Made by a program: the position numbers and the translations under genes. From positions 1 to 49,750 of the forward strand of contig JBPCNK010000093.1 of assembly GCA_051001345.1 (NCBI GenBank): a stretch of 49,750 nt of DNA. Reading direction: 5' to 3'. Source of the stretch: Acidobacteriota bacterium (GTDB taxonomy: Bacteria > Acidobacteriota > UBA6911 > JACQSX01 > JBPCNK01). Shown here piece by piece: positions 17,827 through 27,019 of the stretch; position 1 is the first letter of the stretch, and each line of letters opens with the position of its first letter. The notes under the pieces are model-generated. The model was not told the DNA's origin. It made no database searches and was given only the letters and a program-made list of their open reading frames with translations.

Positions 17827-18381
17827 ATGACGCCCACAAGGCCTGAACTGAAGTTTACCTACGAAGACTACCTCTTGTTGCCCGAAGATAAGCGGTACGA
17901 GCTCATCGACGGAGATCTCTGCATGGTTCCTGCTCCCAGTTTGTATCACCAGATCGTCTGTCGCCGCATCGGTGTAGCCCTCACCCAATTTGTAGACGAC
18001 CGTGATCTGGGAGAAGTGCTGTGGGCGCCCTGCGATGTTTACCTTTCCCAATTCGACGTGGTGCAGCCCGATATGTTCTTCATAACGTCCGAGAGGCGCG
18101 GCATTATGAAGGAAGCGTTTGTTGAGGGGACACCCGATCTCATCGTGGAAATCATTTCTCCGTCCGATCCAAAGAAAGACCGGGATCTGAAGCGGAAGCT
18201 CTACGCGCGCTTCGGCGCGCGTGAATATTGGATTGTCGATCCGGCGGCGAGAAGCATCGATGTGCTGGTCCGGGAGGAAGACGACTTGAAGGTACTGCAG
18301 ATCTTCGTGGTGGAGGAAACGTTGAAATCAATGCTACTGCCGGATTTCCGGCTTCCTTTTGGGGGTGTCTTCGCCCGATAG
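17827..18381 (+). CDS. Uma2/DUF820 family PD-(D/E)xK endonuclease
   Basis: RYELIDG, P..HQ, VVQPD, PDLIVEIISPS, DR..K..LYARFG.REYWIVDP. Confidence 0.95.
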   Translation: MTPTRPELKFTYEDYLLLPEDKRYELIDGDLCMVPAPSLYHQIVCRRIGVALTQFVDDRDLGEVLWAPCDVYLSQFDVVQPDMFFITSERRGIMKEAFVEGTPDLIVEIISPSDPKKDRDLKRKLYARFGAREYWIVDPAARSIDVLVREEDDLKVLQIFVVEETLKSMLLPDFRLPFGGVFAR

Positions 18382-18421
18382 GGCGAATGAGGAATGAAAA
18401 TCGGCCTCCTACTTGCCGTTG

Positions 18422-18668
18422 GTGACCAGGTTTTTCCTCTGCCACGGCCTCGCGACACCGGAAAAGCAAAAAAGCTAGTCACGAATTCCACGAATTTAAC
18501 GAATTATCACGAACCTTAATTCAGGCGGGTTGCCGGTCCAGAGCCAGGCAGCCGAAGTGCAAAGATCGTTTCGTGTCATTCGTGTAATTCGTGACTAAGC
18601 TTTTTTCGAATTGCCCGAGCCCCGCGATGCCGAAAAAGTCAAAAGGCCAGTCACGAATTGTCCCGAAC
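18422..18668. mobile_element. Nonamer-arm composite element, largely the reverse complement of 13790-14010, truncated at the brnA start codon
   Basis: Shared internal GCCCGAGCCCCGCGATGCCGAAAAA and TTCAGGCGGGTTGCCGG cores. Confidence 0.83.
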
Positions 18669-18902
18669 ATGAGAAAGTACTACGATTTTTCGAAAGCCAC
18701 GCGCAACCCGTACGCCCGGCGGTTGAAACAGCACGTCACGATCCGGCTCGACCAGGACACCATCGCCTATTTCAAAGGTCTTTCGAAGGAAACCGCCATC
18801 CCATATCAGACGCTGATCAACCTGTATCTTCGAGAGTGCACATCGAGCCGAAAGGGGCTTTCGATCGCTTGGCGGCCCATACGCAATCACGGCGAAGCCT
18901 AA
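18669..18902 (+). CDS. brnA: BrnA-family antitoxin (orphan)
   Basis: MRKYYDFSKA.RNPYA..LK..VTIRLD...IAYFK....IPYQTLINLYL; no BrnT upstream. Confidence 0.88.
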   Translation: MRKYYDFSKATRNPYARRLKQHVTIRLDQDTIAYFKGLSKETAIPYQTLINLYLRECTSSRKGLSIAWRPIRNHGEA

Positions 18903-18928
18903 CGAATTAAGGATTCTTGTCGCCCTTG

Positions 18929-19126
18929 TTAGGCTGAGACCTGTTCGTAGGAGAAGGCTGGAATCTCCGTACGGTCTCGGGCATGTTCGATCGTGATGCC
19001 ACAAATGTTTCCGTCCTGGTCGAGATCGAGAAGAGTGTTCTCATCCAGATCCTTGGTTTCAGCAACCGCGGCGCGCCGGAACTCGATGTACAGCGTATCT
19101 GTGTCTTGAAAATATTTGATTCTCAT
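18929..19126 (-). CDS. DUF2283 family protein (putative antitoxin)
   Basis: MRIKYFQDTDTLYIEF...LDLDQDGNICGITIE pattern. Confidence 0.85.
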   Translation of the reverse strand: MRIKYFQDTDTLYIEFRRAAVAETKDLDENTLLDLDQDGNICGITIEHARDRTEIPAFSYEQVSA

Positions 19127-19359
19127 AGCTCAAATGACCGGTCAAAGAACGCGTTGTGCACGGTCTCTCCATCTGGCAACAGTATAACCCGCAGATATTT
19201 TCCCTCCATCTCGGAAATTGGCGCCCAACGGCGAATTCGACTGTCCGCCTGAACAACCTCCCTTACTGGACTCTTCACAACGCGCTCGATCCACTCGATT
19301 TGAATCGCCGCGCGATCCGGACGTTGGCGGACTGCCTGGAAGTATTGGGTGAACTTCAC
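19123..19359 (-). CDS. DUF4258/RelE-like putative toxin paired with DUF2283
   Basis: 78 aa, ATGA overlap with DUF2283 gene; LRVILLPDGETVHNAFFDR tail. Confidence 0.75.
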   Translation of the reverse strand: MKFTQYFQAVRQRPDRAAIQIEWIERVVKSPVREVVQADSRIRRWAPISEMEGKYLRVILLPDGETVHNAFFDRSFEL

Positions 19360-19368
19360 AAGCTGGTT

Positions 19369-19923
19369 TTACGGTTTGAAAATGTTGGACAGCGAAAGCT
19401 TGAACTCCTGCAGGAGAGGCGAACTCAAATTGTCGTCCGCCACGAACACCTGGACGGTTTTCAGGTCGCCTTCCTGTCGCGTGAGCACGTCGACGGTTTT
19501 GGCGTCGGGGTCGACGATCCAATACTCGCGCACACCAAAGCGAGCGTAGAGTTTGCGTTTAAGTTCGCGGTCTCTTTTCGGATCGGAGGGCGAAAGGATC
19601 TCAACGACCAGATCAGGAGCCCCGTCAACGTAAGGGCCTTTGATGATGCCCAGCCGATCCGAAGAGACCCACAGAATATCGGGCTGTACGACGTCGTACC
19701 TTGAAAGATAGACATCGCATGGGGCGGCAATCACCTGCCCAAATAGGTTCTTATCGACGAAGTCGTTTAGCGCCGCTCCCATTCTCACTGAGACGATTTG
19801 ATGGAAGGTCCTGGGAGCGGGAACCACATAGAGGTCTCCGCCGATAAGTTCGTAGCGCTTCTCTTCGGGGAGTAGAAGATAGTCGTCGTAGGTGAACTCT
19901 AGTTCGGGTTTCGTGGGCGTCAT
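19369..19923 (-). CDS. Uma2/DUF820 family endonuclease (paralog of 17827-18381)
   Basis: Same motifs; both 184 aa with near-identical N-termini. Confidence 0.95.
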   Translation of the reverse strand: MTPTKPELEFTYDDYLLLPEEKRYELIGGDLYVVPAPRTFHQIVSVRMGAALNDFVDKNLFGQVIAAPCDVYLSRYDVVQPDILWVSSDRLGIIKGPYVDGAPDLVVEILSPSDPKRDRELKRKLYARFGVREYWIVDPDAKTVDVLTRQEGDLKTVQVFVADDNLSSPLLQEFKLSLSNIFKP

Positions 19924-20607: not shown

Positions 20608-23600
20608 ATGAAACACATGGCTCACGTCTCCGGCCGTTTGGGTTTGCTGGAGGAGGCGCTGCTGCAGGCGCTCGTTGACGCCAAGAAAAAAGATCCCTTC
20701 AAACCGCTGACCGTTCTGGTCGGATCGCGCCTGGTGGGCTTGTATCTGCAGCGTGCGCTGGCGTTGCGCGGCAACTCCCATCTCAATATCGACTGGCCGA
20801 CGCCGCCGGAGCTGGCGCGCAGAATCGCCGGCCCCTGCGGCGAGACGCTGTCTCCCGTGGCGGAAGCCTTCCTCGTTAGAAAACTGAAGGCGCGGGGATA
20901 CTTCGACCCGGTGGCCGAACGGCGCGGCTTCTACCGGGTTCTCCACGCCACATTGAAAGATCTTCGCGACGGAGGATTCCGTAGTTGTCCGGTTCCATCA
21001 GGTGATTCCAACGGCAAGATTCGGGAAGTAGCGCAGCTTCATAAGAGGTATCTGGCGGCGCTTGAGGGATTTGTAGACGACGCTGGTGTATTGGACAGAG
21101 CCGCCGCCAGCAGTGTGTCCTTTGACCGTCTGTGGATCTACGGTTTATATGACTTCACCGAGATGCAGCGCCGGCTGATCGAGGCAATCGCCCGGCAGGT
21201 TCCAGTGGAATGCTTCTTTCTGGAACACGAGTTTTCCAAGCCGACTCTGGAGTGGTTCGAGTCGATCGGGTTTGAGAAGAGCGTCGAGAAAAGCCGCAGG
21301 CTTGTCGAAAAAAGCCGCAGGCTGGAAGCCTGCGCTACTGCAACCTGTGTCGTGCTGAGTGCTTCGACCGAAGTTCGCGAGGTCACCGAAATCGCGCGCG
21401 AGATCTACAAGATGTGCCGCGACGAGAATTATCATTTTCACGAGATCGGCGTGGCGCTGCGCAATTCCGAAGAATACTCCGCCTTGTTCCAGCAGGTTTT
21501 CGAAAACCTCGGAATACCAGCGTTTGTCCAGAAAGGAAACAATCTAGCGGCGCACTCGCTGGGGCGCGCCGTGCTGCTGCTCGTCGACCTGGCGCAATCG
21601 GAATACCGGCGCGAGGCGGTCGTCGAGTGGGTCAAGTTTGCCGAAGTCCAACAGGCGGCGCTGTGGGACCGGCTCAGTCTTGAGGCCGGCGTCACTGAGG
21701 GCAAAGAGAACTGGCGCAGAAAATTGAAGTCACTGAAGGGCGCTTATTACCGCAGGCGCCGCAGACTGCGAGCCGAACGCGGCATTCTGGACGAGTCCAC
21801 ACCCGATCCGCCCGACGTCGCCTTGCCGGCCGGTGAGCAAGCGCTGCTCGACCGGATTAAGGCGATCGACGAGTTCGTGAGTTTTCTTTCCCGTCTGTTT
21901 CAGCATCTGGAAAGCCTGCCGCCAGTTGCGTCTTGGAGCCGTTTCTCAAAACTGGCCGATCAACTCGTGCAGTATTTCCACCCGCGCGACCCTGATCTGG
22001 AACGAGTGTCCGAGGCGCTTGCCAGCCTGGCGCAAATCGAGCGGCTGGAAGCGGAGACGACCTTTGCGACGTTTCGCGAAATGGTCCACGAGGCATTCGA
22101 GCAGGTCAGCTGGCACTCGGGCGCCTTCCAGCGAAACGCTGTCAGCGTATTCGCCTTGATGGCAGGCCGAGGCGTTCGTTTTCGGGCGCTGTTTGTACCC
22201 GGAATGGTCGAGAAATCGTTTCCAGCGCAAGTCCGCCAGGACCCGATTCTGCTCGATGAAGAACGAAAGCAAATCAACACGTTCGGCCAGGGACGGCTGC
22301 CCCTGAAGTTGTCACGACTGGACGAAGAAGCGCTTCTGTTCGATCTGATCCAGGACTCGGCCACCGAGCGCGTACTGTTTTCGTACCCCCGCATGGATGC
22401 CGCCACCGGACGGGACCGTGTCCCTTCTCCCTTTCTTTTGAAGCTGCACTCCCCGCCGCTTGAGACCTACGACGCCCTGTCGAGATTGCCTGGCTTTCGC
22501 AGAGTGGGAACCTCCGAAGTGGCGCCCCAGCGCGCCGCCGATTCGCTTCGCCGGCAGGAATACGACCTGTATTGCATCCAGCGTTCGACCGGCGAAGAAC
22601 GCAAGGACCTGGGCCGTTACCTGATGCGCGCTGATCCGTGGCTGCGGCGTTCGCTTGTGGCGCACGAGACGCGTTTTTTCTCGGGGACCTTCACGCCCTT
22701 TGACGGAATCGTATCCTCTCGGCTGAGCCGGGGGCGCCTGGCGGCGCGATTCGACCCGGAGAGCCACACATTCTCCGCCACGCAACTGGAAACCTATGCC
22801 ACGTGCCCTTATCGCTTTTTCCTGCGCGATGTGTTGCGTCTCGATCCACAACGAACTGAGGAAACCATCCAGGGCCTTACCGCTCTGGACCGGGGCTCGC
22901 TGGCCCATGAAATCCTGCGCGATTTCTTCTCGCGCGTCAGCCCGCCGCTCGACCCGGACCAAAAGCAGGAGCTGTCCGACAAGCTCAATCGAACGATCGA
23001 ACAGCACTTCGCGCGCGCCGAGGCCGAAGGCATTACCGGCTATCGCCTGCTGTGGGAGATGGATCGGCAGCGGCTGCGCGAAGACCTTCTAGAACTTCTC
23101 GACCGGGAGCTGGCCGAAAGCCGCTGGATACCGGCTGAATTTGAAGTCTGGTTTGACACCATCGTGGTCGATTCGCCGGTCGGGCCGGTGCGCTTCAAAG
23201 GGAAGGTGGACCGAATCGATCGCTCCGGCGGATACACAGGACAGGGCGCGGCGCCACAGGCCGTGCGAGTCATTGATTACAAGACAGGAAAGGTTTACCA
23301 AAAAGTGAAGGCTCCTTTTGGCGGTGGACGCTCGCTGCAGCTTCCCATCTACATGTTGGCGGCTCAGCAGCGCTACGGTCTCTCCGACATGGAGCGGTCC
23401 ATTGCAGAGTATTACTTTATTTCGCGCCGGCAGAAGTTTAAGAAAATTGAATTTCCGGGCAGGGACTGGCCGCGCCAATCCGCGTCGCTCAGCCACGTTG
23501 CGGGAACGCTTGTGGCGGGAATTCTTCAGGGACAATTCTTTCCATTTCCCGGCCACGACGCCGAGAACTGCAAATTCTGTGATTTTCGGTCGGTCTGCGA

Positions 23601-23685
23601 CCGAAGAGTTGTGACCCTGTTCGACAAGAAGCGGGATGATCCTGTGGCGGAGAATTTCCTCGGCTTGAAAAAAGAGCCGGAATAG
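20608..23685 (+). CDS. addB: AddB-like nuclease subunit (inactive helicase fold + PD-(D/E)xK nuclease with 4-Cys Fe-S staple)
   Basis: SATQLETYATCPYRFF, RGSLAH, GKVDRID, IDYKTG, LQLPIY, C..C.....C; precedes an AddA-like gene. Confidence 0.85.
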   Translation: MKHMAHVSGRLGLLEEALLQALVDAKKKDPFKPLTVLVGSRLVGLYLQRALALRGNSHLNIDWPTPPELARRIAGPCGETLSPVAEAFLVRKLKARGYFDPVAERRGFYRVLHATLKDLRDGGFRSCPVPSGDSNGKIREVAQLHKRYLAALEGFVDDAGVLDRAAASSVSFDRLWIYGLYDFTEMQRRLIEAIARQVPVECFFLEHEFSKPTLEWFESIGFEKSVEKSRRLVEKSRRLEACATATCVVLSASTEVREVTEIAREIYKMCRDENYHFHEIGVALRNSEEYSALFQQVFENLGIPAFVQKGNNLAAHSLGRAVLLLVDLAQSEYRREAVVEWVKFAEVQQAALWDRLSLEAGVTEGKENWRRKLKSLKGAYYRRRRRLRAERGILDESTPDPPDVALPAGEQALLDRIKAIDEFVSFLSRLFQHLESLPPVASWSRFSKLADQLVQYFHPRDPDLERVSEALASLAQIERLEAETTFATFREMVHEAFEQVSWHSGAFQRNAVSVFALMAGRGVRFRALFVPGMVEKSFPAQVRQDPILLDEERKQINTFGQGRLPLKLSRLDEEALLFDLIQDSATERVLFSYPRMDAATGRDRVPSPFLLKLHSPPLETYDALSRLPGFRRVGTSEVAPQRAADSLRRQEYDLYCIQRSTGEERKDLGRYLMRADPWLRRSLVAHETRFFSGTFTPFDGIVSSRLSRGRLAARFDPESHTFSATQLETYATCPYRFFLRDVLRLDPQRTEETIQGLTALDRGSLAHEILRDFFSRVSPPLDPDQKQELSDKLNRTIEQHFARAEAEGITGYRLLWEMDRQRLREDLLELLDRELAESRWIPAEFEVWFDTIVVDSPVGPVRFKGKVDRIDRSGGYTGQGAAPQAVRVIDYKTGKVYQKVKAPFGGGRSLQLPIYMLAAQQRYGLSDMERSIAEYYFISRRQKFKKIEFPGRDWPRQSASLSHVAGTLVAGILQGQFFPFPGHDAENCKFCDFRSVCDRRVVTLFDKKRDDPVAENFLGLKKEPE

Positions 23686-23987
23686 GCCGGAGTAGGCCTG
23701 GAGTAGGCCGGATTATTCAGAAAAAAGCTAGTCACGAATTACACGAATTACACGAATGAACACGAACGTTCTCAGCACCAGCGGTGGAACCGATATATTT
23801 CGCGCCCAGTCGGGATAATTCGTGACTAGCTTTTTGCTTTTTGCGAATAGGTTAGGTACTCGGATTATTCACAAAATAAAAAACTTAGTCACGAATGATA
23901 GAAATTTGTGAACAGGCGCTGAAGTGCAAAGGTTTTTCGTGTAATTCGTTTAATTCGTGTAATTCGTGACTAAGCTTTTTTGTGAAT
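23686..23987. mobile_element. Two tandem nonamer-arm elements between addB and addA
   Basis: TAGGCCGGAG-type stutter x3 leading into GCCGGATTATTCA; second unit starts CTCGGATTATTCACAAAA at 23859. Confidence 0.87.
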
Positions 23988-24007
23988 GTCAGAGCCGGAC
24001 GAACTCG

Positions 24008-27000
24008 ATGACGTCGAACACTGAACCCCTCGACCTGGTTGACCAACGCGACCGCGATCGGGCTTGCCGCGATCTCGATTCCAGCCTTGTCGTCGAGGCG
24101 GGAGCAGGGACGGGGAAAACAACGGTGCTGGTCAGCCGGGTACTTCACATTCTGGAATCCCAGCGGGCGGCCCTTCCTGAAATTGTCGCCATTACGTTCA
24201 CGGAGAAGGCTGCCGGCGAGTTGAAGATTCGTTTGCGCGAAGAGATCGAAAAGAGGGGACTGCGCGAGCCGCTGCAGCAACTTGACAGGACCAACGTCTC
24301 GACCATTCATGCCTTCGCCTCCGCGCTGCTGCGCGAACGCCCGGTCGAAGCCGGCGTCGATCCGGGCTTTGAACAACTGGACGCGCTGTCGGGAACTCTG
24401 CTGGAGGAAGAGCTCTGGAAAGAATGGATCGGCCTTCAGTTGGAATCCGCCCACCCGGTTTTGAAGGATGCCTTGGCATCCGGCATCACCATCAAACACA
24501 TGAGAGGGATGGCCAGCCAGCTGTATGAGAACCGGGATGTTGCCGAAGGACTTGGGGCCGTAGAGCCTGTCGAGCTACTCGATCGGGTATTGCACTGGTT
24601 AGCAGGCCAGGGATCAGGGGTCAGGGGTCAGGGGTCAGGGAGGGGTCAGGGGTCAGGGGTCAGGGGGCTGCCGGCTGCCGACTGCCTACTGTCGTTTGTG
24701 TCGTTCGCCCAGCGGGAGAAGGAACGGCGCGGGCTGGTGGATTTTCAGGATCTGCTGATTAAGGCGCGCGACATGCTGCGCGACAATCGCGAGGCGCGCC
24801 GGTACTTCCAATCGAGGTTCAAATACATCCTCGTCGACGAGTTTCAGGATACCGATCCGCTGCAGGTCGAAATCGTCTTTTTCCTGGCGGAGGAGCGACC
24901 GTTGGCCGACTCGTGGCGGAGCGTGCAGCTCAAACCGGGAAAGTTATTTGTGGTGGGCGACCCCAAGCAATCGATTTATCGCTTTCGCCGGGCCGATATC
25001 GAAATGTACGCGCAAGCCCGGCGCCAGATTTGCGGCCAAAACGAGCCGCTGAAGATCGTCCAGAATTTTCGCAGCGTGCCCGCCGTGATCGGTTGGATCA
25101 ACGAAGCCTTCAGCAAATTGATCGTTCCTTCCGATTACCAGCCTTCCTACGAGCCGCTTGCCGCGGCGCGCCAATTGCCCGCATCCGTACCCGCGCGGCC
25201 CTCGGATGCAGCGCTGCGACCGCGCGTGCTATTTCCCAGCAATGCAAAGGAACAACCCGCTTCCGCCCCCGAATATCGCGCAGCCGAAGCGGATGTTATC
25301 GCCCAGGTCGTGCTCGCGGCGTTGGAGGAACAGTGGACGATCACGGAAAAGAGCGGCGGGGTGCGGCCGGTGCGACGGCGTGATATTGCAATACTATTTG
25401 GCCGCTGGAGCAAGGAGATCGACATCTATGAGGCGGCCCTGCAGGCGCACGGACTGGCCTATCACATGGACGGCGGCAAGAATTTTTTCGTCCGGCAGGA
25501 AGTTCGTTCTCTGGCGGCCTGCCTGTCGGCGGTAGAAGATCCGATGGACGCCGTGGCGCTGGTAGGCGCCCTGCGCTCTTCGTTCTTCGGCTTCTCCGAT
25601 GAAGATTTGTTTTTGGTTGTTTCAGGCGGGAAAAAACTCAATTACCTGGAAGATCCCGGCGAAGAATGGCCTGAACTGCGCGCAGGGTTCCGACTGCTGC
25701 GATCGCTGCACGAAGAACGCAACCGCAAGACGATTTCACAGACTGTCGACGGACTGCTGGACTCGACGCGTGCGCTCCAGGCGTTGGCGCTGCAGCCGTA
25801 TGGCGATCAGGCCGTTGCCAACCTGTTGAAAGTCGCCGAACAGGCTCGCGCGTTTGATCGGCAGAGGCTGACAACGTTCGGGCGGTTTGCGCGCTGGATT
25901 TCCAAAATGGAAGACGAGCAGAAGGACGAAGCCGAGTCGGCTCTGATCGAAGCGGAGGAAGATGTTTTGCGGTTGTTTACGATCCACCGTGCCAAGGGTC
26001 TGGAATTTCCGGTGGTCATTCTTGCCAACTTGAATTTTGGCAAAGCTCGCGCCGATCGGCTGATTGTCGAGCACGTAGGCGCGAAGCTTCACGCCCGGAT
26101 CGAAGTGCAATCCGAGGACGGCAAGTCGCTTACGCTTGCAACTTCGGACTTCGAAGACGCGGTCGAACGCGAGCGCCAGCGCGAAGCCGATGAATTGAAG
26201 CGGCTCTTCTATGTCGGCGCGACTCGCGCCCGAGACTACCTGGTACTTCCGGTCCTGCCGTATCAGAAGAAGCCGGTTGGTTTTCTTCAAATGTTGTTGG
26301 AGAGCCAGACGGCGGTCCCCTCGCAAATCAGCAGGCGATTGGGTGAACCCCCTCCTCCTCTGAAGATTGATTTAGCCGATCAGGCCGACTACGACCCGGG
26401 CATTCTGCTCGAGCGCAAACAGTGGGAAGCCGAGCGGGAAAACACCTGGCAGCGGGCCCGGGGCGGAATCGAGTGGGCCAGCGCGACAAGCCAAAAGGAC
26501 GCGCTCTGGGAGGAACTCGAAACCGAGCATTGGGGCACAGGCGACGGAACGGCGCTGGGAGCCGCCTTTCACGAAATCATGGATCAGATCGACTGGAGCG
26601 ATCCGGCTGGCCTCGATCAACTTTGCCGGGATCGCGCCGGTTTCTTTGGGATCTCCGCCCGAGCCGCTTTGCTGGAAGAGATGGCGCGCTGGTGTTTGAA
26701 AAGTGATCTGGTCAGGCGGGCGCTGGCCTCGCAGAATTACTGGAAAGAGATGCCGTTCGCCTGTTTTGATCCGCCGCGGATGATGGAGGGCGCAATGGAC
26801 CTCGTCTTCCGGGAACCCGGCGGCTTGGTCATTGTCGACTTTAAGACGGACGCCACCCCGAAACGTCTCGAATCGGTCTACCGGATCCAGGGCGAAACCT
26901 ACGCGCGCGCGCTGACAAAGATCACAGGCCAGGCGCCGCGAGAGGTCTGGTTTCTATTTGTGCAAGCCAAGACTGCCGAGCGGCTGGAGTTGGGCAAGGG

Positions 27001-27019
27001 GCAGATGAAGTTGTTTTAG
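24008..27019 (+). CDS. addA: AddA-like UvrD helicase-nuclease
   Basis: AGAGTGKT, ITFTEKAA, TIHAF, VDEFQD, VGDPKQSIYRFR, QNFRS, TIHRAKGLEF, YVGATRA, C-terminal G..D.....VDFKT nuclease. Confidence 0.92.
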   Translation: MTSNTEPLDLVDQRDRDRACRDLDSSLVVEAGAGTGKTTVLVSRVLHILESQRAALPEIVAITFTEKAAGELKIRLREEIEKRGLREPLQQLDRTNVSTIHAFASALLRERPVEAGVDPGFEQLDALSGTLLEEELWKEWIGLQLESAHPVLKDALASGITIKHMRGMASQLYENRDVAEGLGAVEPVELLDRVLHWLAGQGSGVRGQGSGRGQGSGVRGLPAADCLLSFVSFAQREKERRGLVDFQDLLIKARDMLRDNREARRYFQSRFKYILVDEFQDTDPLQVEIVFFLAEERPLADSWRSVQLKPGKLFVVGDPKQSIYRFRRADIEMYAQARRQICGQNEPLKIVQNFRSVPAVIGWINEAFSKLIVPSDYQPSYEPLAAARQLPASVPARPSDAALRPRVLFPSNAKEQPASAPEYRAAEADVIAQVVLAALEEQWTITEKSGGVRPVRRRDIAILFGRWSKEIDIYEAALQAHGLAYHMDGGKNFFVRQEVRSLAACLSAVEDPMDAVALVGALRSSFFGFSDEDLFLVVSGGKKLNYLEDPGEEWPELRAGFRLLRSLHEERNRKTISQTVDGLLDSTRALQALALQPYGDQAVANLLKVAEQARAFDRQRLTTFGRFARWISKMEDEQKDEAESALIEAEEDVLRLFTIHRAKGLEFPVVILANLNFGKARADRLIVEHVGAKLHARIEVQSEDGKSLTLATSDFEDAVERERQREADELKRLFYVGATRARDYLVLPVLPYQKKPVGFLQMLLESQTAVPSQISRRLGEPPPPLKIDLADQADYDPGILLERKQWEAERENTWQRARGGIEWASATSQKDALWEELETEHWGTGDGTALGAAFHEIMDQIDWSDPAGLDQLCRDRAGFFGISARAALLEEMARWCLKSDLVRRALASQNYWKEMPFACFDPPRMMEGAMDLVFREPGGLVIVDFKTDATPKRLESVYRIQGETYARALTKITGQAPREVWFLFVQAKTAERLELGKGQMKLF

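Follow-up and report, generated by a model that had tools for sequence, protein, structure and literature searches.

The addA-like helicase-nuclease gene analysed here carries, in frame and as assembled, an 87-nt block of heptamer repeats of a kind ordinary for its genome. The gene lies in the window, the whole 49,750-nt stretch of contig JBPCNK010000093.1 from an Acidobacteriota bacterium. It sits within a conserved helix of the AddA protein, which is devoid of its 1B arm. It is likely that the repeats are translated into a tolerated loop and that the reading frame is kept by purifying selection. What counts against this reading is that an insert in the middle of a helix is harder to tolerate than one in a surface loop.

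Heptamer arrays within an addA-like gene

The 1017-aa open reading frame (23966-27019) contains two heptamer arrays, one G-rich and one C-rich, and stays open through both. They are situated between the TIHAF (residue 113) and DFQDLL (residues 259-264) helicase motifs. Both TRF and the sequence itself thus bear out the in-frame heptamer repeat described between these motifs by a first-pass annotation of this DNA. Its period of seven holds as well; its span of 24607..24691 gives way to the insertion delimited by comparison with orthologs, and both arrays are imperfect (Table 1). Both of the longest perfect runs (3.9 and 3.7 units) belong to the G-rich array. The C-rich array is not complementary to it, and no stable hairpin was found at the arrays (z-scores of +1.1 and +1.7 relative to 200 shuffled sequences). 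That gain or loss of one unit shifts the frame, as had also been stated, proved right: a change by one or two units leads to a stop within 49-50 codons, before the DEFQD motif.

Two further features were noted at the left edge of the insert. The junction is where a mini stem-loop of 6 bp closes (24595-24610), and an out-of-frame TAG (24600-24602) stands just 5' of the G-rich array. Since arrays elsewhere in the genome begin at stop codons, this TAG may have been the seed of the addA array.

Table 1. Features of the addB-addA region, in coordinates of the window
Feature	Position	Strand	Description
addB-like partner gene	20608..23685	+	intact; nuclease motifs; four nuclease-domain cysteines (733, 988, 991, 997)
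addA-like helicase-nuclease gene	24008..27019	+	reading frame opens with GTG at 23966; start of the ortholog corresponds to ATG at 24008
Six-residue link	24551..24568	+	residues 196-201; takes the place of some 107 1B-arm residues in orthologs; no repeat
N-terminal half of split helix	24569..24607	+	residues 202-214, including conserved Trp211
In-frame insertion relative to orthologs	24608..24694	+	87 nt, 29 codons, residues 215-243 of P0001
G-rich heptamer array	24608..24666	+	TRF: period 7, 8.9 copies, 87% matches, score 90
C-rich degenerate heptamer array	24668..24691	+	TRF: period 7, 3.4 copies, score 34; last-arm-type class
C-terminal half of split helix	24695..24730	+	residues 244-255; leads to DFQDLL

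The identification of the gene as addA, made from its letters alone in the first-pass annotation, agrees with database comparisons. For the window's protein (P0001), B. subtilis AddA is the best solved relative both by sequence (E 1e-46, with the ortholog P0003 as query) and by fold; PDB entries 3u44 and 4cej are top matches by sequence and fold. As in AddA of AddAB, all SF1A motor motifs listed are present together with C-terminal RecB-type nuclease motifs, and an addB-like gene with four nuclease-domain cysteines is adjacent. On the other hand, the protein differs from AddA of AddAB in having a 1B arm short by about 100 residues and in scoring below every NCBIfam AddA cut-off (TIGR02785, 296.8 against 707.65; TIGR02784, 231.9 against 860.75). 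Because these cut-offs are not reached, the designation "AddA-like" is used here. A tblastn search of the assembly with the gene's own product found no second addA copy, the other match being a 25%-identical UvrD-like gene.

The partner protein P0002 has addB_Gpos as its best match (E 1.6e-33, below the cut-off of that model). Its four cysteines would fit the Fe-S nuclease domain of AddB, and cluster binding is putative. addB also carries an in-frame 21-nt tandem duplication (21283-21323), by which a 7-residue peptide is doubled.

Absence of the 1B arm

The TIHxF and DExQD motifs are separated by 178 residues in the window's protein, 149 of which remain if the insert is disregarded. The spacing is 242-272 residues in 18 of the 19 loci of relatives, the range excluding one locus with spacing readable from the alignment alone, and at least 236 in 257 of 270 fetched homologs. 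Residues of 1B are thus missing, a point that the first-pass annotation had raised. When the protein was compared with a PSSM built from 111 homologs, residues up to Gly195 matched columns 63-82, residues 202-214 matched columns 190-202 and residues 244-263 matched columns 203-222. The 1B arm therefore appears to have lost about 100 residues between positions 195 and 202, where the six-residue link is the presumable junction of the arm deletion.

Ten other homologs have a spacing of 151-178 residues and no repeat peptide (one outlier with a spacing of 104 was set aside). Natural repeat-free armless AddA-like proteins are P0297, P0300, P0285, P0353, P0123 and P0144/146/148/149/152. A quick tree was constructed from 76 rows, comprising 11 armless proteins and 65 of the 224 armed ones. 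It displays armless homologs on several branches and requires six arm changes, at least three of which are forced by strong branches; P0001 and P0003 are placed beside two armed proteins. Given the armless homologs free of repeats and the six changes in the tree, loss of the arm is likely to be recurrent and independent of repeats.

Searches of shorter proteins and of 50% representatives revealed neither a third close allele nor a sister with an empty site, the next best match after P0003 being P0243 (60% identical, with full arm). Used as query against metagenomes, the downstream 302 aa retrieved 80 loci, the best of them 48% identical, and no close relative; none of the 40 relatives compared shares the family or genus of this organism. 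The 1B arm of B. subtilis AddAB contacts the duplex and has been proposed to aid unwinding, according to the available portions of PMC3321194 and PMC4614115. Neither armless AddA nor repeats in AddA were found in the literature covered, main texts with few subscription journals among them.

Two other proteins may be mentioned here. P0301 has a peptide with 7-residue periodicity at the start of its 1B arm, which, judged from the protein alone, resembles a translated heptamer array. Residues 41-329 of PDB 6ppu chain B (AdnAB complex) align with residues 26-314 of P0003 in one stretch of equal length, and this motor may have a short 1B too.

A conserved helix split by the insertion

The repeat appears to split the last conserved helix of 1B, between Gly214 and Phe244. 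From the conserved Trp to the D of DFxDLL, 19 residues are counted in 90 of 115 homologs, 48 in P0001 and 32 in P0003. In the PSSM, the 9- and 13-residue peptides preceding the insert end at column 202, and the peptide following it begins at column 203. In a MAFFT alignment with P0003 as first sequence, Trp197 falls into a nearly invariant column. The native heptapeptide before the insert scores 13.3 bits; natural homologs have a median of 17.4, and their range includes this value. Since the residues before and after the insert fit consecutive profile columns, loss of the arm, about 40 nt upstream of the repeat, would be an event separate from the insertion. The profile fit of the pre-insert residues is modest (5-13 bits), and widening the window to 20 residues shifts their best position to where the arm begins, with negative scores.

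An initial alignment had spread the repeat over the arm, as if the one had replaced the other; this arrangement was overturned by the profile tests. The first-pass annotation had left open whether the repeat inserted into 1B or replaced part of it. Insertion stands, and replacement is probably wrong, the arm having been lost upstream and its loss being shared with P0003 and having parallels in homologs free of repeats.

A deletion junction would be another way to account for the repeat: the arrays replaced the arm or recombined it away, and their peptide now links the start of the arm to its end. The arm deletion and the repeat are as close as some 40 nt, both alleles with the deletion carry a repeat, and MAFFT with P0001 as first sequence, together with the 20-residue PSSM window, aligns residues 205-214 with the first helix of the arm. 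However, Trp-Leu-x-Gly fits the terminal helix, exactly in register with what follows the insert, and repeat-free armless homologs keep this terminal helix whole. We consider the junction unlikely.

AlphaFold models were compared for both proteins. For P0003, pLDDT is 87, 51 and 91 across helix half, insert and helix half, and the insert is predicted to loop out with both halves of the helix still folding. The model of P0001 has a mean pLDDT of 85, with residues 197-235 mostly below 50 and the insert residues 214-235 below 50. Residues 236-255, including the C-rich array peptide, are drawn as one helix, for which the underlying alignment is locally ambiguous. As MAFFT with P0001 as first sequence places the pre-insert residues at the start of the arm, this model is unreliable over residues 197-235. 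The peptide of the G-rich array is predicted to be disordered.

Scored post hoc against the helix profile, the C-rich peptide beats 99% of the peptides derived from arrays when 7 residues are taken and 95% when 9 are taken, and stays below every natural homolog; its helix fit is only a hint. On a bolder reading, the 1B arm was shed several times independently, and the scar was rebuilt here by heptamers, with the C-rich peptide recruited as a replacement helix turn. We hold this to be improbable. If true, it would mean that a core motor of DNA repair acquires new structure through repeat turnover.

Heptamer repeats across the genome

The addA arrays belong to a genome-wide family of heptamer repeats. 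There are 776 exact arrays of at least three heptamers in the genome, as compared with 0-68 for periods 4-6 and 8-12. Classified by copy number, 527 perfect heptamer arrays have three units, 202 have four and 48 are longer. An array is present at the 3' end of 490 of the 2004 long ORFs (at least 300 aa). First arms at gene 3' ends fall into 57 unit classes, and arrays form mosaics of dozens of classes. First and last arms are of non-complementary classes in 175 of 247 pairs and of complementary classes in the other 72; adjacent arrays of differing class were counted 152 times.

The G-rich array of addA shares its orientation and its unit class with the first arm most often seen at gene 3' ends (64 of 490; found once as last arm). 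One unit of the C-rich array is known four times as last arm and never as first arm. Because of the genome-wide excess of period 7, and because its unit class is that of the commonest first arm, the addA array does not represent a chance repeat.

Further, we examined arrays inside coding sequences. In the cores of ORFs of at least 300 aa, stronger arrays are depleted about 40-fold (14 of 1482, with 612 expected), which fits the arrays being harmful when translated. Inspection by eye of the 58 clusters, out of 1030, in which arrays are flanked on either side by coding-like sequence showed no apparent case of one gene split out of frame by an array. Twenty-two long ORFs have a deep array; besides AddA, 20 were scanned against Pfam and one was left out. 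No match was obtained for 13 of the 20. In five, the array lies upstream of the first domain match; four of these are likely to have over-long starts, and the fifth is a Cas10-like gene that may have one. One of the remaining ORFs has a weak short array within a domain and the other (LigD) has arrays in an interdomain linker. On the basis of this survey, cases like that of AddA are rare in the genome.

In the LigD gene (G000:C307:1129-1198, L115), the linker joining ligase and polymerase holds two in-frame heptamer arrays, both G-rich; this is the second clear in-gene case of the genome. In the Cas10/Cmr2-like ORF (G000:C110:15276-15308, L105), a weak in-frame heptamer array precedes the palm domain match. 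Inverted 9-mer arrays constitute a second repeat family of the genome. In the window they bracket ORFs at 17827-19923, which we take to be two Uma2-like genes and one small antitoxin-like gene, and the addB-addA spacer at 23733-23968.

A second allele and the maintenance of the reading frame

The ortholog P0003 is 92% identical to the window's protein and has the same short 1B arm. At the G|F bond where the window's protein has 29 extra residues, it carries 13, PASRQSPVASRQS. This is the peptide encoded by the second commonest first-arm unit class (42 of 490), and the insert of P0003, a cluster of one known from its protein sequence, would be encoded by a heptamer array of that class. The content of the site thus appears to turn over between alleles. 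Since P0003 has an insert at this bond and a short arm as well, neither is an artefact of assembly.

A contig of run X4 matches the window from 24691 on, with 62 differences in 751 nt; towards the array, 26 letters of the contig remain unmatched. Within the 40 of 136 difference rows that were compared, 28 codons differ from the window synonymously and 11 non-synonymously; the amino-acid differences fall on the same 11 positions as in P0003, ten of them with the identical residue. Since substitutions are mostly synonymous, the addA-like gene looks to be under purifying selection. The known alleles are two, both found as intact proteins, and the impression that the insert is always in frame may reflect the way they were found.

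The first-pass annotation proposed a phase-variable recombination switch, in which slippage of one 7-nt unit would toggle addA off and on and both states would be kept in the population. The early stop after a change of one or two units agrees with such a device. At least three copies of one pentanucleotide are counted as hypermutable in Table 1 of PMC4235727, and about four perfect heptamers may slip likewise; in the accessible part of the same paper, heptanucleotide tracts control the H. influenzae hmw genes, at promoter level. The addA array, however, is a degenerate mosaic with perfect runs of ordinary length for this genome. P0003 has another unit class and another length at the site, neither of the two known alleles is out of frame, and none of the 58 inspected clusters looked like a gene split out of frame. 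A single-copy repair gene of what is presumably a soil or sediment organism is, moreover, no surface antigen. An invariant unit number combined with a similar low-complexity linker in orthologs had been named beforehand as speaking against a switch; the ortholog half of this was found, the insert of P0003 being of comparable low complexity. A recombination switch is not supported, and we regard it as quite unlikely.

It is very doubtful, too, that a real site holds a partly misassembled array, wrong in unit number or in the join of two classes, as short-read graphs tangle at repeats. The assembly consists of 378 contigs, and the addA unit class is found near contig ends. Runs X1-X3 hold pieces identical to the window, no piece among those listed for X1-X4 bridges the array, and X1 is uncovered at 24667-24748, a hole that proves nothing. 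Yet the block is shorter than 90 nt and both its flanks are in register with P0003. Mixed classes are normal in this genome, as seen in arm pairs and adjacent arrays, and a wrong length would preserve the frame one time in three. Removal or skipping of the block at the RNA level, by a tiny intron or ribosomal bypass, would restore the helix in ortholog register, as the block splits it exactly, but it is extremely improbable: a stable hairpin is absent, both alleles are multiples of three, which would be needless in a block that is removed, and arrays are depleted in coding cores as if harmful when translated.

Discussion

The translated and tolerated loop remains the reading that we prefer. 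The following order of events is conceivable. The 1B arm would have been lost first, and its loss would have relaxed packing on the N-terminal half of the helix, rendering the site permissive. The process that builds arrays, slippage along with copying of units from other arrays, would then have struck the site, which would have undergone turnover since. Frameshifted products would arise and be purged, because this is the sole addA in the genome, and in-frame results would survive.

Bacterial heptameric repeats include the cyanobacterial STRR and those treated by Mrazek et al. 2007. Heptameric long SSRs of Xanthomonas (GGGAATC) and Nostoc (GGGGA(C/T)T) are described in the available part of PMC4692102, where intragenic arrays are already known as a minority class, and the accessible text of PMC4679880 describes TAACTGA heptamer repeats in Beggiatoaceae. 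The genome analysed here has in common with these the period of seven, short arrays peaking at three to four units and a mostly intergenic position. The G-rich strand is also the sense strand near stop codons, inverted pairs are frequent and a minority of arrays is intragenic. It differs in its dozens of unit classes arranged in mosaics, and in having a copy that lies within a helix, in the catalytic part of a helicase for DNA repair. The hairpin of inverted pairs, an optional feature of heptameric long SSRs and STRR-like repeats, is absent at the addA arrays.

In-frame tandem repeats create disordered regions in Borg proteins, as far as the available portion of PMC9879509 goes. Like the addA insert, they combine fast turnover within ORFs with a preserved frame and disordered segments. 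Intragenic Borg units are divisible by three, whereas the addA unit is 7 nt long and only its total length is a multiple of three. Translational phase variation by SSRs, in the part of PMC4235727 at hand, shares with addA a non-triplet unit in coding sequence and truncation upon a one-unit change; the addA array differs in being a degenerate mosaic with a unit class not conserved in the ortholog. Phase-variable loci are marked by a long pure tract with the same unit in relatives, in contrast to addA with its runs of fewer than four units and the differing insert of P0003.

What is new here is modest, the heptamer arrays themselves being of a known kind: an armless AddA and a repeat site in the middle of a helix. 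Natural armless variants of AddA lend themselves to the question whether unwinding, which the available text of PMC4614115 proposes as the role of the arm, depends on it. The addA site also offers a clean two-allele test of the origin and turnover of the unexplained heptamer arrays. Even in the motor region of a repair helicase present in single copy, different blocks of 7-base repeats can be accepted at one and the same peptide bond.
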